NCBI GenBank assembly: GCA_035289185.1
Contig: DATDXT010000033.1
Coordinates: 1 to 30,416, forward strand
DNA: 30,416 nt
From: an archaeon
GTDB taxonomy: Archaea; Aenigmatarchaeota; Aenigmatarchaeia; CG10238-14; SCSR01
Direction: 5' to 3'
Every line of letters begins with the position of its first letter. Positions within the stretch are counted from its first letter, which is position 1. The notes under the pieces are model-generated. The model was not told the origin of the DNA. It made no database searches and saw only the letters and a program-made list of their open reading frames with translations. The position numbers and the translations under genes are program-made. Of the stretch, positions 11,539 to 30,416 are shown piece after piece.

Positions 11539-12342
11539 TCAATGTCGCAAATCCAGGACACGTCTGCTCATGTAAAGTACAAAGATTGCAAGCAGAGGAA
11601 ATCCTAAAAACACCACGATGTTCAATGTAAGACCTGAGTATGTATTTGGAAAATCTGCTATATAGAAAAGAGTACCTAATGCAACAAAGTAAATCAATGT
11701 GCTGTAGATCAATTTGCTGAATTTTCTTATGTCTTTGAACTGGTAGTAGAGTATGCTGTATGCAACTGAAAGCAAAAGTATCATCTGGAACAGCATGTAT
11801 ATTCCAAAAGTGCTGTAAAAAGGTTCTGCCATGAAAATTAACTGCCATAATCCAAGATCTGTGCCTCCTCTTACGTCTTGGGTATATCCAGAAGTCACTG
11901 TGTAGCACCAAAAGAAGTCATGCAGGTTGTTTGCAGCGAATCCTATGAAAAAGAAAGCAGCAAAAGTAAGTAAGAAATTCCTCATTGGAAATCTTTTTAT
12001 TTTAAGCAGGAACAGTGACCAGAAGTCGGCGAATGCAAAAGGCAGTAACATGAACAAAGAACCTCCATAGAGCCAGAAACCAAAATTCCAAAGCTGTGGC
12101 AGTCCAAGTGCTTTGGCATGGAAGTTAGCTGCCACGAAAATTATAAAAATGAAAAGCGAAACAGAGAAACAGACTTTCAGATTATAGAAATTTTTAAGTT
12201 TCTTTCCAGAAAGGAACAATTTTGGTTTTTTCTGCACGAATCTTTTTAATTTTCCTGTCAGAAGAACATATGCAAACCCCGCGTAAAGAAGCGCGAAAAT
12301 TATTGCCACATGTAAAGTTTTTGCAAGTTCAGGAGTCATCAA
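11539..12342 (-). CDS. Polytopic membrane protein (about 7-8 predicted TM helices), function unknown
   Basis: Aromatic-rich hydrophobic segments throughout. Its start ATG overlaps the stop of the upstream nucleotidyltransferase gene (ATGA). Confidence 0.6.
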   Translation of the reverse strand: MMTPELAKTLHVAIIFALLYAGFAYVLLTGKLKRFVQKKPKLFLSGKKLKNFYNLKVCFSVSLFIFIIFVAANFHAKALGLPQLWNFGFWLYGGSLFMLLPFAFADFWSLFLLKIKRFPMRNFLLTFAAFFFIGFAANNLHDFFWCYTVTSGYTQDVRGGTDLGLWQLIFMAEPFYSTFGIYMLFQMILLLSVAYSILYYQFKDIRKFSKLIYSTLIYFVALGTLFYIADFPNTYSGLTLNIVVFLGFPLLAIFVLYMSRRVLDLRH

Positions 12343-13208
12343 GCATCATCCAATTCAGGCAGATCTTCTCCAAGCAATTCCTCTGGTAAAAGCTTCTTGA
12401 ACCTTTCTATCATGTCCTTTGTCAGAATCAATGCCTTTTCCAAATGATCTGTTGTTACGTCTTTCACAATCTTGTGGTCTATGTCTTTCCAAAGCTTGTC
12501 CAATTCGGCGAACTTGTCTATGAAGTCTCTTTCCAACTTACCTTCTTTTACCAACTTCTCTAAAAACTCAGGAGCTTTCTTGTAGTCAGGCTGCTCTTTG
12601 AAATGGTGCATCACGACAGCTTGCACTATGTCCAACATCGTGTATCTCAATTCAAAAATCATCGATTTGATATCCAATCTTATTCTCTTTAATCTTATTT
12701 CAGCCGACTTGGCTTTCAATGTTATCGTCTCATCACTCGGAGGAATCAACCCCATTTGAAGCATCTTCTGCACAGGTTTTATGAAACCATTGTCGAAAAT
12801 AGGCAGACCGTATCTCAAAAAGTTTACAAACTCAGGCGATCCTACTCTTATCGATTGCCAGAATGCAGTCAGAGTATGAACTTGCACGTGGAGGTCTTTT
12901 ATCTGTGATGCTATGTGATGAAGGTTGGCCTGCACTCTGTTCAAATCCTCGCTTGATTTTGTTGCAGTATCATCCAAAAGAACCCAAACATCCACATCGC
13001 TTGTCTTCTTTGCATCTCCTCTTACTACAGAACCGAAAATCAGAACTGATTTTATAATGTCACCATACATCTTCCTGGCTTCGGTAGCAAACTTCACTGC
13101 CCTGGAATAGATTTCCCTAGAAGTTTCATCCTTAAACACATCCTTATGCTGATCAATCTTCACAAGCTTCGTATCTTCAAGCTCTCTTTCCAGTTTGTCC
13201 AATGCCAT
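12339..13208 (-). CDS. Pol-beta superfamily nucleotidyltransferase (minimal NTase N-domain plus helical C-domain, KNTase/OAS-like architecture)
   Basis: The GSVVRGDAKKTSDVDVWV motif matches GS...[DE]x[DE]. It is followed by a helical domain of about 170 aa. Confidence 0.7.
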   Translation of the reverse strand: MALDKLERELEDTKLVKIDQHKDVFKDETSREIYSRAVKFATEARKMYGDIIKSVLIFGSVVRGDAKKTSDVDVWVLLDDTATKSSEDLNRVQANLHHIASQIKDLHVQVHTLTAFWQSIRVGSPEFVNFLRYGLPIFDNGFIKPVQKMLQMGLIPPSDETITLKAKSAEIRLKRIRLDIKSMIFELRYTMLDIVQAVVMHHFKEQPDYKKAPEFLEKLVKEGKLERDFIDKFAELDKLWKDIDHKIVKDVTTDHLEKALILTKDMIERFKKLLPEELLGEDLPELDDA

Positions 13209-20977: not shown

Positions 20978-21928
20978 ATGCACGTGGAAATAAGGAACGT
21001 TGGCAGAAAGAAAAAATATTACCTTGCACACTCATTCAGGCATGATGGGAAGGTCAAAAAGTTCAGATTTTATCTTGGAACTGATTTGACAAAAACAGAA
21101 TTAAACGACAAAATAAAACACGCAAAGGAAATTTTGGATGAGAGGATAAAAGCATATGGAAAAGTAGGAGACCCGTTCTATACAGTTATTACATCCAAAG
21201 AATTGGAATATGTAAAACATCTGGAAGATAAATACAGGATGGAAGAAATAAAAGTTTTGCACCTGTCTGAAAAAAACTGGGCCGAATTTACAAAAGCATT
21301 CACATACGATACCAATGCCATAGAGGGATCCACCGTGACTTTTACAGAAGTCTCTGACATATTGGAAAAAAAAGAATGGCCTAAAGAAAAGCAAAAATGG
21401 GAGATATCTGAAACATATGGAGTTGCGGAAGCCGTTGATTTCATAAGAAATTCTAGGGAAGACATCTCTTTAAAATTGATAAAAGAACTCCACAGGATTG
21501 TGTTCAAGAATTCCAAGGATTTTGCAGGCAAATTCAGGAAGAATGGAGAGGAGGTCGCTGTAGTGGACGCCTTTGGCAATATAAAACATAGAGGAGCCCC
21601 ATCATCGCAGATTGTCAGGCTTCTTAATGAATTGATACGTTGGTATGGCAAAAACAACCGGAAATATCCTGCATTGGTGTTGGCTGCTGTGGTACACAAT
21701 CATTTTGAAACTATACATCCATTCAAGGACGGAAATGGGAGAGTCGGAAGGCTTTTGTTGAACAACATATTGTTGAAGCACGGTTTGCCGCCCGTCAACA
21801 TAGAGCTGAAAAGCAGGCAGGAATACTACAGGGCACTGCAGGAATATCAAAAAATGAGGAATCTTCGACCAATGATAGAGCTTATATTGAGAGAATACAG
21901 GAGATTTATGAAAAGCCTGAACAGGTGA
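20978..21928 (+). CDS. fic: Fic/Doc-family protein (class II Fic AMPylase with N-terminal inhibitory helix)
   Basis: Canonical Fic motif HPFKDGNGRVGR and an upstream inhibitory motif TNAIEGS ((S/T)xxxE(G/N)). Confidence 0.9.
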   Translation: MHVEIRNVGRKKKYYLAHSFRHDGKVKKFRFYLGTDLTKTELNDKIKHAKEILDERIKAYGKVGDPFYTVITSKELEYVKHLEDKYRMEEIKVLHLSEKNWAEFTKAFTYDTNAIEGSTVTFTEVSDILEKKEWPKEKQKWEISETYGVAEAVDFIRNSREDISLKLIKELHRIVFKNSKDFAGKFRKNGEEVAVVDAFGNIKHRGAPSSQIVRLLNELIRWYGKNNRKYPALVLAAVVHNHFETIHPFKDGNGRVGRLLLNNILLKHGLPPVNIELKSRQEYYRALQEYQKMRNLRPMIELILREYRRFMKSLNR

Positions 21929-26917: not shown

Positions 26918-27313
26918 ATGAACGATATGTGGACTGAGAAAGACGGCTTATCGCATTTGAATATGCTACCAAATTTATTGGTGGCATTGGCCGAGGGTAA
27001 CGGTTCCTTGAGAAAATATTCTGAAACAAGATATGGTTTAGCTTCTGTAACCTACAAAATCAGAATAAGAGAATATTCTTTGCGTTTGGAGGACGGCACA
27101 GATGTTCTATATAAAGTAGAAGAAGATGGCATACAAAAATTACAAGAAACCATAAAGCTAAATGGAAAGGTTGCGTTTGAAAGACCAAATGTTATTAATT
27201 TCGAAAACACATTCTACGAATTTAATCCACGATCAAAGCTAGATAAGTTGCATGAAATAAATAAGCATGAAATAAATAAGCATGAAATAAAAAAGTTTGT
27301 AGACTTAGGCTAG
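26918..27313 (+). CDS. Hypothetical protein, 131 aa, with C-terminal HEINK tandem repeat
   Basis: A strong GGTGAGG Shine-Dalgarno-like motif lies 8 nt upstream. Confidence 0.5.
   Translation: MNDMWTEKDGLSHLNMLPNLLVALAEGNGSLRKYSETRYGLASVTYKIRIREYSLRLEDGTDVLYKVEEDGIQKLQETIKLNGKVAFERPNVINFENTFYEFNPRSKLDKLHEINKHEINKHEIKKFVDLG
27251..27295 (+). repeat. 3 x 15-bp tandem repeat (catgaaataaataag) encoding HEINK-HEINK-HEIKK
   Basis: Seen directly. The third unit has 1 mismatch. Confidence 0.7.
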
Positions 27314-28741
27314 ATTTTCCTTCTCAAAATAAGTCCTTAAAAATATACAAAAATCTTCATTCGCCATCAAAGCTTTGGAAATAGAATCTGCATCCGAATA
27401 AATCCTGAACCCTTTCATCATCTGCTCTGCTATGTAGTTCGGTATTCCCTTAGCCTTCAGTGTGTTTATGTCTTTTTTCAAGCTATCGACAAGCTTGTCC
27501 CTCGCGTTCAAGAACCTTCTTTCTATCTCCACAACCCATTTATCATTCTCTATAAAAGGACCGTTGATGATGTCTCCTTTCATGTATTTTTCAATGAACC
27601 TCTTTGCATCGTCTACGTCAAAAACGCTAGGTCCGATCCTCTTTTGAACATTGGGCAGATTCTCATAAAATTCCATCTCCAATAAAACTACAGCAATGTC
27701 CTTATCGTTCGTATAGACGTCCTTTCTCAAGACCTTGAACTCATTTTTAGTTTCTTCCAGTATGCTTTCTATCCTGTCTGCGAACTTCCTCAATTGTGGC
27801 CAAAGAATATCAGGAACAACCTTCGGAGGATCCATCTTTACCACCAGAAGCCCTGTGTTTCTTTTCTCTAGATAACTGGTCAGTTCTGCAGTAGTCAACG
27901 GCTTTACATTCTTTTTGATGAAAAATGATTTTGCAGGCTCTTTTAAGAAAGCTTTTACAACTTTTATAAGTTTGAAGAAATTCTCTGGCGAAACAGCGGA
28001 TGCAACGTTCCTGTTCTTGTCTGTAGGGTCTATCAAAACCAATGCCTCCCCCCTGAACTTGTGATTCAGGCTCTTGTAATCCTTCTTATCATAGTATTTT
28101 TCCGTGTCTATAATTTCCCCAGGCTTCCAGTCTGCAATGTTTTTCAAAACGTTCATGAATTTGCCATAGTTTATTACCAGTACTTCGCATGCATATCCAG
28201 ACAAACCTTGCGCTCTAGCATCAGCGCCATAGACTCCACCAGCTTTGCATAATTGCTTCAAAAGTCTGACCTCATCTGAAAGCGATTGTGGCAGGTTCTT
28301 GTCAAGATATCTTACATGGAAAGGTGTCCTATCAACTGCAGACTTTATCTCCTTCGTAGATTCTACAGCATAACAAGGCACTATGTCCACTTGCATTCCA
28401 TCGATTTCGCCTGTCACATAAGGATGCTGCGCATATTCCACCCAAGACGTTCCTTTCAACCTTTTGATCACCGCCCTACCTACAGATATCCCTATGTCTT
28501 CCAGTTCCTTCTCTGGCAGGCTTTTGGGAAAAACAAGGAAAACATCGCATTCTTTCTTGTCAGGCAGCCATGTATTCCTAGTAACGCTTCCAGCAGACAT
28601 CGCTTCTGCACCATACTTTTCTATCTCTATGTCCGCAAAAGCAACAATCTTCTTAGACAAAGTCTTTAGCTTTTCCTCGTCTTCCTTGCTCGGCTTTACT
28701 ATCTTCAATGCTTCGTTGATGACTTTCTGATAATTGTCCAT
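27305..28741 (-). CDS. cca: CCA-adding enzyme (archaeal class I tRNA nucleotidyltransferase)
   Basis: The GSVTRNTWLPDKKECDVFLVFP NTase motif and overall length match the archaeal enzyme. The start MDNYQKVINE is preferred over the upstream M at 28774. Confidence 0.85.
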   Translation of the reverse strand: MDNYQKVINEALKIVKPSKEDEEKLKTLSKKIVAFADIEIEKYGAEAMSAGSVTRNTWLPDKKECDVFLVFPKSLPEKELEDIGISVGRAVIKRLKGTSWVEYAQHPYVTGEIDGMQVDIVPCYAVESTKEIKSAVDRTPFHVRYLDKNLPQSLSDEVRLLKQLCKAGGVYGADARAQGLSGYACEVLVINYGKFMNVLKNIADWKPGEIIDTEKYYDKKDYKSLNHKFRGEALVLIDPTDKNRNVASAVSPENFFKLIKVVKAFLKEPAKSFFIKKNVKPLTTAELTSYLEKRNTGLLVVKMDPPKVVPDILWPQLRKFADRIESILEETKNEFKVLRKDVYTNDKDIAVVLLEMEFYENLPNVQKRIGPSVFDVDDAKRFIEKYMKGDIINGPFIENDKWVVEIERRFLNARDKLVDSLKKDINTLKAKGIPNYIAEQMMKGFRIYSDADSISKALMANEDFCIFLRTYFEKENLA

Positions 28742-28759
28742 AAATTTATTTTCTATCTG
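28721..28759. repeat. Direct repeat copy A spanning the cca start codon
   Basis: gactttctgataattgtccataaatttattttctatctg is about 33 of 40 identical to 29261..29300. Confidence 0.75.
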
Positions 28760-28802
28760 CAAGACTATAATCATTTATAAACTGTAGTAACAATAGGAAT
28801 TT

Positions 28803-28988
28803 ATGACAGAGCTTGAAACTTTGCATGCAGAAATAGATGAAATAAGGTCAAATGTGACAAAGATACTATTCATACTTGAAAACGAAGGCGAAGTAAATAA
28901 AAAAGTATTGAAAGAGCTGAAAGAAAGTAAAAGTGCTACAAAAGACAAATTCTTGCCCCACGAAACTCTTAAGAGATCTTTGAAATGA
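28803..28988 (+). CDS. Putative type II antitoxin, 61 aa, helical and charged
   Basis: Small ORF whose stop overlaps the relE start (ATGA). Confidence 0.5.
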   Translation: MTELETLHAEIDEIRSNVTKILFILENEGEVNKKVLKELKESKSATKDKFLPHETLKRSLK

Positions 28989-29242
28989 CATGGCATATAG
29001 AATGGTACAGAAAGGCCGCAAAAAATCTGGAATCTTTACCCAAAGAAATTCGTGATAGAGTTGTTAAATACATAGACAAAGTTCAACAAGCCCCATTTAA
29101 TTTTCTAGAACACTTTGAGCTGAAAGGCTATTATAAAATCAGAGTAGGTGATTATAGGGCAATTGCTTCTGTAGATTTTCAAAACAAAATCATTTCTATT
29201 ATTATATTTGATCATAGGAAAAGAATTTACAAAAGACTTTAA
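28985..29242 (+). CDS. relE: RelE/ParE-family type II toxin (mRNA interferase)
   Basis: ...ELKGYYKIRVGDYRAIASVDFQNKIISIIIFDHRKRIYKRL is the hallmark RelE/StbE C-terminus. 85 aa. Confidence 0.85.
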   Translation: MTWHIEWYRKAAKNLESLPKEIRDRVVKYIDKVQQAPFNFLEHFELKGYYKIRVGDYRAIASVDFQNKIISIIIFDHRKRIYKRL

Positions 29243-29251
29243 TAAGTTCCA

Positions 29252-29281
29252 TTATAAAAAGACTTTCTGATAAATGTCCAT
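29252..29281 (-). pseudogene. Duplicated 5' remnant of cca (ATG + MDIYQKVFL-stop)
   Basis: The reverse complement reads atg gac att tat cag aaa gtc ttt tta taa, compared with the authentic cca start MDNYQKVIN. Confidence 0.5.
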
Positions 29282-29300
29282 AAAATTACTTTCTGTTTAG
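29261..29300. repeat. Direct repeat copy B (flanks the TA cassette distal to cca)
   Basis: gactttctgataaatgtccataaaattactttctgtttag. Confidence 0.75.
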
Positions 29301-29416
29301 TTAAAGAAAAATTAGGAATGTTATACGTATAACAAATCATATAATTACTCAAAAATGGTGAAAAAGTTGGGTATTTAAAGTTTAATTTTCTATAGAAAGT
29401 TAAGAAAGTGATTAAA

Positions 29417-29899
29417 ATGGAAGAAGGTCTGACAGCAGGACAGCAAGAACTTGTAGACAAACTAGATAAAATTATTGATAAATTAGATAGCAGACATGGA
29501 TATGTTGACAGCGAAAGTCTAAGACATAATGTGGAAAGCATGTATAACTTAGGAATGTTGAATTATGATGGTGGTTTTAAAAGAACAGTTGCAGGAAGAG
29601 AATCTTCTATACCAAATGAAATGCTAGAAGTCGCAATTGCCCTGTACGTTGATAAGTCTCTTATTAAAAAATTGAGAGCCTTGGCAGCAGCGAATGACAT
29701 AGAACTCGATCCAAGCAAGGTCAGATATGTCGTAGCTTTATACGGATTGGATAAAGAAGAAAAGGGATATGTGGTGGAGCTTATTAAAAACCATGAGGAG
29801 AGATGGGGAAAGAGGATTGAAGATGGTGTTTTGTACAGACCAAATAAAGAAAATGTGGCAACGATAACAGATTTATTGTCAAGAGAAGATGCCAAATAA
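29417..29899 (+). CDS. Hypothetical protein, about 160 aa
   Basis: ORF with the start context taaaATGgaagaa. No recognisable motif. Confidence 0.45.
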   Translation: MEEGLTAGQQELVDKLDKIIDKLDSRHGYVDSESLRHNVESMYNLGMLNYDGGFKRTVAGRESSIPNEMLEVAIALYVDKSLIKKLRALAAANDIELDPSKVRYVVALYGLDKEEKGYVVELIKNHEERWGKRIEDGVLYRPNKENVATITDLLSREDAK

Positions 29900-29992
29900 A
29901 CTGCATATTTCTATAATTACTCTAAAGTAGTCAATAATTAAAGCTTTATATACTTAAGAAGCATAATAATTGTAACTAAAAAGTGGTTACAA

Positions 29993-30416
29993 ATGACAGG
30001 AACAAAAAGCAATTATGTGAGTGAATGGAAAACAGTTAGTGACAATAGTCTCTTGGAAATCATGCCAGAATTTTTAATCGATTGGATAATAAGAGGTTCT
30101 AATGAGCAAGGCAGAGGAATAGATGAATATACTATAGAGCCTAAACACAACCCATTAGCAGCTTATTTTCAAAAACTTGGTATTAAGACAGATAGACAAG
30201 TAGGATGTTCTGTTATAGAATATATAAGAGTGACAAATTCTGGTGCACGTTATGTTTACAGAAGCCTATCACCACGTGATCATTATGAAACAGATTCTGA
30301 AACGAAGCTTAACAGGGTAGAACAGATACTTGTCGGAGACTCTGTAAAATTGGAAAGAATTGTAAGAGAAGAGCTGGTTAAAGTAGAAGAAAAGTATAAT
30401 GATCCGACACGTTTCT
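29993..30416 (+). CDS. Hypothetical protein, 3' partial (open to the window end)
   Basis: Hand-translated open frame from the ATG at 29993 with no stop codon. Confidence 0.4.
   Translation, partial: MTGTKSNYVSEWKTVSDNSLLEIMPEFLIDWIIRGSNEQGRGIDEYTIEPKHNPLAAYFQKLGIKTDRQVGCSVIEYIRVTNSGARYVYRSLSPRDHYETDSETKLNRVEQILVGDSVKLERIVREELVKVEEKYNDPTRF

Follow-up and report, generated by a model that had tools for sequence, protein, structure and literature searches.

We describe here a short segment of an archaeal chromosome in which a predicted toxin-antitoxin (TA) pair of the RelE type lies directly at the start of cca, the gene of the CCA-adding enzyme, between two copies of a direct repeat that contains the beginning of the cca reading frame. 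The segment belongs to a contig of 30,416 nucleotides from a member of the Aenigmatarchaeota (GenBank DATDXT010000033.1, assembly GCA_035289185.1), which was analyzed at its full length and is referred to below as the window; all positions are those of the window. The cca gene (27305-28741, minus strand) codes for a class I enzyme of 478 amino acids (aa) with matches to the Pfam families PF01909, PF09249 and PF21133. Codons 1-7 of cca together with 13 nt upstream of its ATG (28741-28739, minus strand) make up repeat copy A (28721-28754). There follow, on the plus strand, a left cassette arm with the promoter, which spans the 48 nt between copy A and the next ATG (28755-28802), the gene of a putative 61-aa antitoxin (28803-28988), the gene of an archaeal RelE/ParE-family toxin of 85 aa (28985-29242) and a 3' tail of 18 nt (29243-29260), and after these comes repeat copy B (29261-29294). 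A second, dead beginning of cca runs through copy B on the minus strand (29252-29281).

The original prediction, made from the letters of this DNA, held that the insert between the repeats carries a 61-aa putative antitoxin and an 85-aa RelE toxin, and both assignments are borne out. The 85-aa product matches the ParE_toxin family PF05016 with E=6.8e-11 (43 bits, the cutoff being 23) and aRelE of Pyrococcus horikoshii (PDB 1WMI) with E=2.8e-7 over residues 1-83, that is, over the full length; its match to TIGR02385 RelE_StbE, at 17.4 bits, is under the cutoff of 27.9. The stop codon of the antitoxin gene and the start codon of the RelE gene overlap by 4 nt (ATGA, 28985-28988). The 61-aa protein has no match in Pfam, NCBIfam, PADLOC or the PDB. 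It is a conserved upstream partner of this RelE clade: a protein of 61-62 aa with the motif LETLH...ILENEGEV precedes RelE also in loci L022, L109 and L110, and the pair is kept in L023 as well. The RelE homologues span 45-96% identity. The module is like the archaeal RelBE pair of P. horikoshii (aRelE-aRelB, 1WMI) in the full-length toxin match and in the upstream partner that overlaps it by 4 nt, and unlike it in that the partner has no detectable similarity to the antitoxins of Pfam, NCBIfam and the PDB. It passes the sequence-based tests for an archaeal RelBE-type type II TA pair, and we treat its two products as a predicted toxin and a predicted antitoxin.

The TA pair is a discrete cassette that is also found in other places. 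RelE homologues of 45-75% identity, accompanied by a homologous partner of 61-62 aa, sit in unrelated contexts: between the gene of an Alg14 glycosyltransferase and an RHS/Imm11 pair in another metagenome-assembled genome of the Aenigmatarchaeota (L022/L023) and on contigs from Hainich groundwater (L109-L111), while more distant homologues adjoin a HepT/MNT pair (L024-26). At the DNA level the window cassette is homologous to L109 over 28769-29236 (75% identity) and to L022 over 28812-29244 (72% identity); of the 506 bp between the repeats, the cassette therefore leaves only 14 nt at the left end and 16 nt at the right end uncovered. Its GC content (30.4%) lies under the 5th percentile of 500-nt windows, compared with 40.8% for cca and 38.9% for the window. 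Two of the groundwater contigs, L109 and L110, are identical from -47 of the antitoxin ATG onward and unrelated before this point (at a low coverage of 1-2x). This left end at -47 is discrete, and in the window the repeat ends at -49 and leaves the unique arm of 48 nt. The occurrence of homologous TA pairs in several contexts would be consistent with mobility of the cassette over evolutionary time. Around the homologous cassettes, flanking repeat pairs of 16/20 in L022 and 24/30 in L025 were seen, both too short to be told from chance. A search for a viral or plasmid origin, in which the cassette, the neighboring gene p160 and the repeat were compared with IMG/VR, the INPHARED phages and the PLSDB plasmids, gave no real match, the sole IMG/VR match being a 13-residue word match.

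Two further observations concern these homologous cassettes. The segments L109:1-260 and L110:1-33, from one groundwater site and with the same cassette and right flank, could represent a second insertion context or a chimeric contig end. In L027 (1-1400), a RelE homologue of 60% identity stands in an apparent tandem array of TA units, in which a 148-nt segment is repeated at 99% identity with a spacing of 655 nt, a third copy (88%) follows 602 nt further on, and a ParE pair is present in the opposite orientation.

The two copies of the direct repeat are identical at 31 of 34 positions, lie 540 bp apart from start to start and enclose 506 bp; stretched to 39 nt, the repeat has an identity of 33/39. 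These values agree with the repeat of about 35-40 bp, with a core of 31/34 around an insert of about 0.5 kb, that had been read from the letters. The prediction that copy B is a dead duplicate of the cca start pointing in the same direction is also confirmed: the stretch 29252-29281 of the minus strand reads as an ATG followed by eight codons and a stop (ATG GAC ATT TAT CAG AAA GTC TTT TTA TAA, or MDIYQKVFL*). The repeat has abrupt edges: within the gene it stops at cca codon 7, and in the opposite direction it reaches 13-17 nt upstream of the ATG. A degenerate pattern of the 24-nt core, with at most three mismatches allowed, occurs in the window at two sites, which are copies A and B, and matched in none of 100 shuffles. 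Local alignment of the copy A region with the copy B region gave a score of 53, the maximum of 366 control windows being 31. It had been suggested that further copies should be searched for, as the repeat might prove to be a common intergenic motif; no other copy of the 34-mer was found in the window, in a scan of JGI metagenome contigs or in a scan of IMG/VR. Beyond the core, on the promoter side, no significant similarity between the copies was found, and a longer, decayed duplication toward that side was rejected (score 19, equalled by 1116 of 8462 control windows). A weak likeness to the repeat is found at the end of the RelE gene, where the final codons together with the 18-nt tail (29226-29260) give a gapped score of 29, which was reached by 4 of 8482 control windows.

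This weakly repeat-like stretch (29226-29260) may be a degenerate third copy of the repeat or a microhomology used in integration. The 3' end of the RelE gene has the sequence AAAAGACTTT in common with the left edge of copy B, which may be a hint of homology-guided entry. A simple microhomology junction through AAAAGACTTT was considered and dropped, both copies of the microhomology being kept, 17 nt apart.

The position of copy A relative to cca depends on where the gene begins. The 120 best cca homologues are mostly of 473-480 aa with the N-terminal consensus MxxYxKVL, and cca of the window begins with MDNYQKVI when read from ATG 28741. Because the homologue lengths and the N-terminal consensus fit, we take this ATG as the true start, which is in accord with the claim that copy A holds the authentic cca ATG. 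Automatic gene calls (P0001, L002) place the start 11 codons earlier, at ATG 28774, and yield a protein of 489 aa; the called ATG falls within the TATA box of the TA promoter. This TATA box, TTTATAAA (28774-28781), begins at -29 from the antitoxin ATG and is preceded by a conserved AATC (28769-28772). Three independent cassettes (window, L022, L109) have TTTATAAA, TTTATAAG or TTTAAAAG, each after AATC and 21-22 nt before the antitoxin ATG, and the consensus of the cassette promoter in the three contexts is TTTA(T/A)AA(A/G). The -29/-30 spacing of the TATA element is common to five other genes of the window, and TATA-like elements at -30/-29 from the ATG were found for the Band7, nucleotidyltransferase, Fic, FtsZ and antitoxin genes; leaderless transcripts are thus implied. 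The -30 element of cca itself is ATTATA (28766-28771). It lies on the strand opposite to the antitoxin promoter, outside the repeat and within the cassette arm, 2 nt from the palindromic cassette TATA (28774-28781), and it is kept in both alleles of the region described below.

Relatives of the cca locus were collected by a profile scan of the GTDB species genomes, which gave 80 Aenigmatarchaeota loci, 69 of them testable for a duplicated cca start. A single-protein scan of the same genomes for close relatives found none, and no locus of the profile scan was above 63% identity. The closest cca relatives (L011, L029, L030/L012 and L092), at 62-67% protein identity, are all without the TA pair. 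In these four, cca faces, across a spacer of 143-178 bp, two tiny genes of 45 and 51 aa that form a conserved pair, and in two of the four the pair is followed by ornithine carbamoyltransferase (OTCase). No homologue of RelE, of the antitoxin, of p160 or of p140, the two genes that follow the cassette, was found within 4 kb of cca in the 80 genomes. Longer contigs of the same species as the window (L001, L002) have the order cca / 61 / RelE / p160 / p140 / p45 / p51 / OTCase; compared with the relatives, cca and p45 are thus separated by about 2 kb of added DNA, of which the quarter nearest to cca is the TA cassette. In more distant relatives, the larger gaps between cca and p45 are filled with housekeeping genes, Sua5-, Kae1- and Elp3-like as judged from sequence alone. 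The cca start is duplicated in none of the 69 testable relatives: when the 34-mer from -13 to +21 around their cca ATG was searched for in the 3.5 kb upstream, its best matches were of 17-25/34, no different in range from those of control 34-mers. The comparison with relatives that lack the TA pair, which had been proposed as a check, thus comes out as anticipated, and a duplicated cca 5' segment without an insert, which would have spoken against an insertion, is seen in none of the 69. A recurrent integration hot spot at cca was rejected, as no relative has a second cca start. The spacer from copy B to p160 (29295-29416) is presumed to be the former cca upstream region; the distance from the pseudo-ATG of copy B to the ATG of p160 is 135 nt, versus the 143-178 nt of the divergent spacers in the relatives, and this natural length fits an arrangement in which cca faced p160 before the cassette arrived.

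The same arrangement is found throughout the sampled population. The exact RelE of the window was found on 19 contigs and the exact p160 on 22, from about 16 samples and several assemblers; all of them have the cassette, and all that are long enough hold both repeat copies. Both copies stand together on at least 11 distinct contigs, which come from different samples and different assemblers, and the arrangement is therefore not an assembly artefact. The region from the TA pair to p160 is near-invariant (0-3 differences per contig), and copy B is invariant wherever it is covered. A comparison of the window with L002-L007, L009 and L015 revealed a polymorphic block (28592-28781) that covers copy A and both TATA elements and ends at the cassette promoter. 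Its two alleles, W and X, differ at 33 positions in 190 bp (about 17%), mostly synonymously, in otherwise near-identical genomes; among codons 1-50 of cca, 17 differ synonymously and 4 non-synonymously. Copy A occurs in the population as W, as X and as a W/X mosaic, with X in more than half of the contigs, and L015 is a W/X/W mosaic with a crossover within copy A. Copy B matches copy A of the window at 31/34 positions but the X form of copy A at only 27/34, so the repeats are not homogenised and their identity is not required; in all, the repeat copies have diverged by 9-21%. At five repeat sites where W and X differ, copy B has the W state at four and neither state at one. The divergent block reaches 27 nt past copy A, across both TATA elements and into the cassette arm. 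Since the block includes the arm, the junction was already present in the donor lineage and the insertion is older than the allele split; it is old and fixed in the sampled population, not recent.

Further short divergent tracts were seen within cca in L009 and L001 (28046-28379 and 28427-28520), and the allele pattern is what would be expected if the population took up short tracts from a divergent lineage that has not been sampled.

The reading that we favor, and to which we give a probability of about 65%, is that a RelE-type TA cassette was inserted at the start of cca with duplication of its target, as an old event in this lineage of the Aenigmatarchaeota (DPANN archaea). A cassette of about 0.5 kb, consisting of a promoter with a B recognition element (BRE) and a TATA box, the leaderless gene of the 61-aa antitoxin and the aRelE gene, would have entered exactly at the cca start, and its entry would have duplicated a target of 34-38 bp made up of 13-17 nt of upstream sequence and cca codons 1-7. 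Copy A would have remained with the body of cca as the working start, and copy B with the old upstream spacer facing p160 as a dead stub of nine codons. The repeat would have originated in this event itself, and either of two routes could have produced it. One is an insertion with long target duplication in the absence of a dedicated recombinase, through the repair of a staggered break; the other is the integration of a circular intermediate by one crossover at a short homology, which would give the same product. The claim made from the sequence had two parts. The insertion of the TA pair at the 5' end of cca is supported, in that the cassette is discrete and the relatives are without it; the duplication of the target is one that we infer from the anatomy of the locus.

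Several points weigh against this reading. No transposase, integrase or other recombinase was found between the repeats, in the 30-kb window or in L001/L002, there are no terminal inverted repeats at the ends of the cassette, and a duplication of 34 bp exceeds the classical target-site duplication of transposases. The three mismatches between copies A and B could date from the event, as in imperfect att sites, and not from later drift. No empty site was found by exact look-ups of RelE, p160 and cca or by a scan of the JGI metagenomes with the degenerate repeat, and the nearest relatives (62-67% identity in cca), which are also without p160 and p140, are too divergent for the pre-insertion target to be aligned. 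Because p160 and the p140-like gene are absent from the relatives too, the insertion of the TA pair accounts only for the cca-proximal part of an island of about 2 kb. A convincing TATA box was not found before copy B, so that the "old promoter" there is a presumption. Finally, the cassette arm has long co-evolved with cca, and this leaves the age and the order of the events uncertain.

An unlikely alternative is that a larger element or plasmid integrated by a Campbell-type event at an att site overlapping the cca start, and that later deletions left only the TA pair, the repeats being attL and attR. Att sites typically take the form of such an imperfect direct repeat, here of 34-38 bp, that overlaps a conserved gene at its end; such classes are treated in PMC2853133. 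At the three mismatched positions, attP and attB could have differed from the outset; TA modules often survive the decay of an element, and the neighboring p160 and p140 are non-ancestral as well. Yet neither an integrase nor a remnant of one is present in the window or in the longer contigs of the same species, the att-like duplication at the cca start occurs in 0/69 relatives, so that the site is not reused, and the cassette and p160 are unmatched in the collections of viruses, phages and plasmids. Moreover, the TA cassette fills the bracket almost to the nucleotide, for which the deletions would have to be improbably exact. The non-ancestral neighbors can also be accommodated by supposing two events, in which copy B would be what remains of a cca 5' end, foreign or paralogous, that either came with the p160/p140 island or was left by the deletion of a second cca, and the TA pair was inserted independently. 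This scenario, which we consider quite unlikely, draws on the absence of p160 and p140 from all relatives, on the stub facing p160 over a spacer of natural length (135 nt), on the hypervariability to the right of p160, where allelic forms are about 40% identical, and on the recombination of the population with divergent lineages; in addition, the stretch of 27 nt that follows copy A behaves as cca upstream sequence of native origin would. It requires that two independent junctions coincide with the ends of the cassette, to within 14 and 16 nt. It also has to contend with the cassette TATA, which is kept in L022 and L109 and lies between copy A and the antitoxin gene, so that the cassette starts right after copy A, and with copy B, which equals the resident W allele at four of the five W/X sites, as a local duplication predicts.

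It may also be asked whether the repeat reflects an insertion at all, or is a functional sequence maintained by selection or gene conversion, such as an operator of the TA complex or a regulatory or terminator motif around the operon. Copy B is invariant, both copies lie upstream of plus-strand genes, and the 3' end of RelE with its tail is repeat-like too, all of which speaks for such a function. Most of the repeat, however, is cca coding sequence for conserved N-terminal residues, which explains the conservation of copy A, and the invariance of copy B is nothing special in a region that is near-invariant from the TA pair to p160. The X allele of copy A, with its 27/34 identity to copy B, and the existence of a mosaic speak against homogenisation, and the cassettes of L022 and L109 are without such a flanking motif. 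We therefore regard a functional origin of the repeat as highly improbable.

An insertion with target duplication, as we favor, bears on the transcription of cca. Since only 13-17 nt of native upstream sequence are left at cca, its -30 TATA element falls in inserted DNA, and cca would now be transcribed from a promoter within this DNA, back to back with the TA promoter. The three closest relatives (L011:7990-8016, L012:3240-3270 and L013:40-75) have in common a motif, AATTTAGTT(T/A)ATC, at 15-16 nt upstream of the cca ATG; presumably it is the promoter from which cca was ancestrally transcribed without a leader. In the window this motif is not clearly kept in either copy of the repeat, and the regions upstream of the two copies bear, by eye, about equal likeness to the promoter motif of the relatives, AATTTAGTTTATCA. 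One may speculate that the cassette acts as a transcriptional gatekeeper of cca, having cut off its promoter and supplied a replacement TATA element, which would add a second layer of addiction by promoter capture; we consider this proposal doubtful. If it were true, any loss of the cassette other than by precise repeat-to-repeat recombination would silence cca, and cca would be modulated as well when the TA complex represses its own promoter. In a related reading, this family of cassettes moves among DPANN archaea by a recombinase-free "long target duplication" route; this is hinted at by the discrete left end at -47/-48 in two species.

Insertion with long target duplication has been described for restriction-modification (R-M) addiction modules of bacteria, which are flanked by unique repeats of more than 30 bp and lack mobility genes, the mechanism being unexplained (PMC2853133); the phenomenon is credited there to Nobusato et al. 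2000 (as cited in PMC2853133). The examples from Haemophilus influenzae have 46-bp repeats with an identity of 43-45/46 that overlap the ends of genes (Furuta, Abe and Kobayashi 2010, PMC2853133), and the screen of these authors kept no archaeal case (PMC2853133). The locus described here shares with the R-M cases a small addiction module free of mobility genes, a unique repeat of more than 30 bp derived from a single-copy target, an insert composition unlike that of the host and an insert of less than 20 kb that holds the module only. It differs from them in that the module is a type II TA pair in a DPANN archaeon and that the target is the 5' end of an essential gene with its start codon, so that the insert has to supply a promoter. 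The R-M cases were, moreover, proven by an empty site in a sister strain, whereas here only the nearest relatives at 62-67% cca identity could be compared. By analogy, the locus would thus appear to behave like the class of insertions with long target duplication without being a proven member of it.

Other known arrangements are less similar. Genomic islands and integrative elements that are directed at the end of a conserved gene, which they repair with a copy of their own by duplication of the att site, likewise have direct repeats that involve the terminus of a housekeeping gene, with one working copy and one orphan stub; unlike them, our locus is without an integrase, its insert of 0.5 kb holds only the TA pair, and the site is unused in 69 relatives. 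The TA cassettes of (super)integrons resemble it as single TA operons in discrete repeat-flanked cassettes, and L027 shows a tandem array; here, in contrast, the repeats are a host gene start and not attC, and an integron integrase and an array are absent from the genome. Transposons, insertion sequences (IS) and miniature inverted-repeat transposable elements (MITEs) have terminal inverted repeats and duplicate 2-15 bp, whereas the duplication here is of 34 bp and there are no inverted repeats.

We found no report of long target duplication for TA modules, the TA reviews citing it for R-M systems only. A TA pair in an archaeon with a reduced genome would thus extend a phenomenon documented for bacterial R-M modules. 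The movement of chromosomal TA modules is poorly documented because most are found without recognizable mobility scars; this locus keeps both insertion junctions, and the limits of its cassette are set independently by homologues. It also suggests that an insertion can part an essential gene from its promoter and still reach fixation. It is a single anecdotal locus that holds nothing unexpected in principle, and it does not represent a novel type of system.

Beyond copy B lie two further genes of the island. The first of them, p160 (29417-29899, plus strand), codes for 160 aa without an assigned function and is part of the non-ancestral island; the second, the p140-like gene (29993-30416, plus strand), runs off the end of the window and is a highly divergent allele of the 140-aa gene present in L001 and L003. 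Searches of PADLOC, NCBIfam and Pfam gave nothing for p160, p140, p45 and p51. The gene after p160 exists in two strongly different protein forms at the same position, one in the window, L004 and L005, the other of 140 aa in L001, L003, L015 and L016. The locus is hypervariable at this point: the alignment of 29961-30416 of the window with L001:1750-2203 fails at about 29961-30001. A second direct repeat (29340-29365 and 29912-29937) brackets p160; its copies are identical at 21 of 26 positions with a spacing of 572, and its score is within the chance range. From the way in which this repeat is placed, one might think of a series of cassette-like insertions or of promoters that were duplicated.

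Elsewhere the window consists of core chromosome, with genes of RNA polymerase subunits, fibrillarin/Nop5, SRP54/FtsY, FtsZ and prefoldin. Among these genes lie those of a Fic/DOC-domain protein (20978-21928) and of a stand-alone nucleotidyltransferase, MNT/Pol-beta-like (12339-13208). Both genes have a TATA element at -30 and may represent additional toxin-like or addiction-type genes of this small genome.

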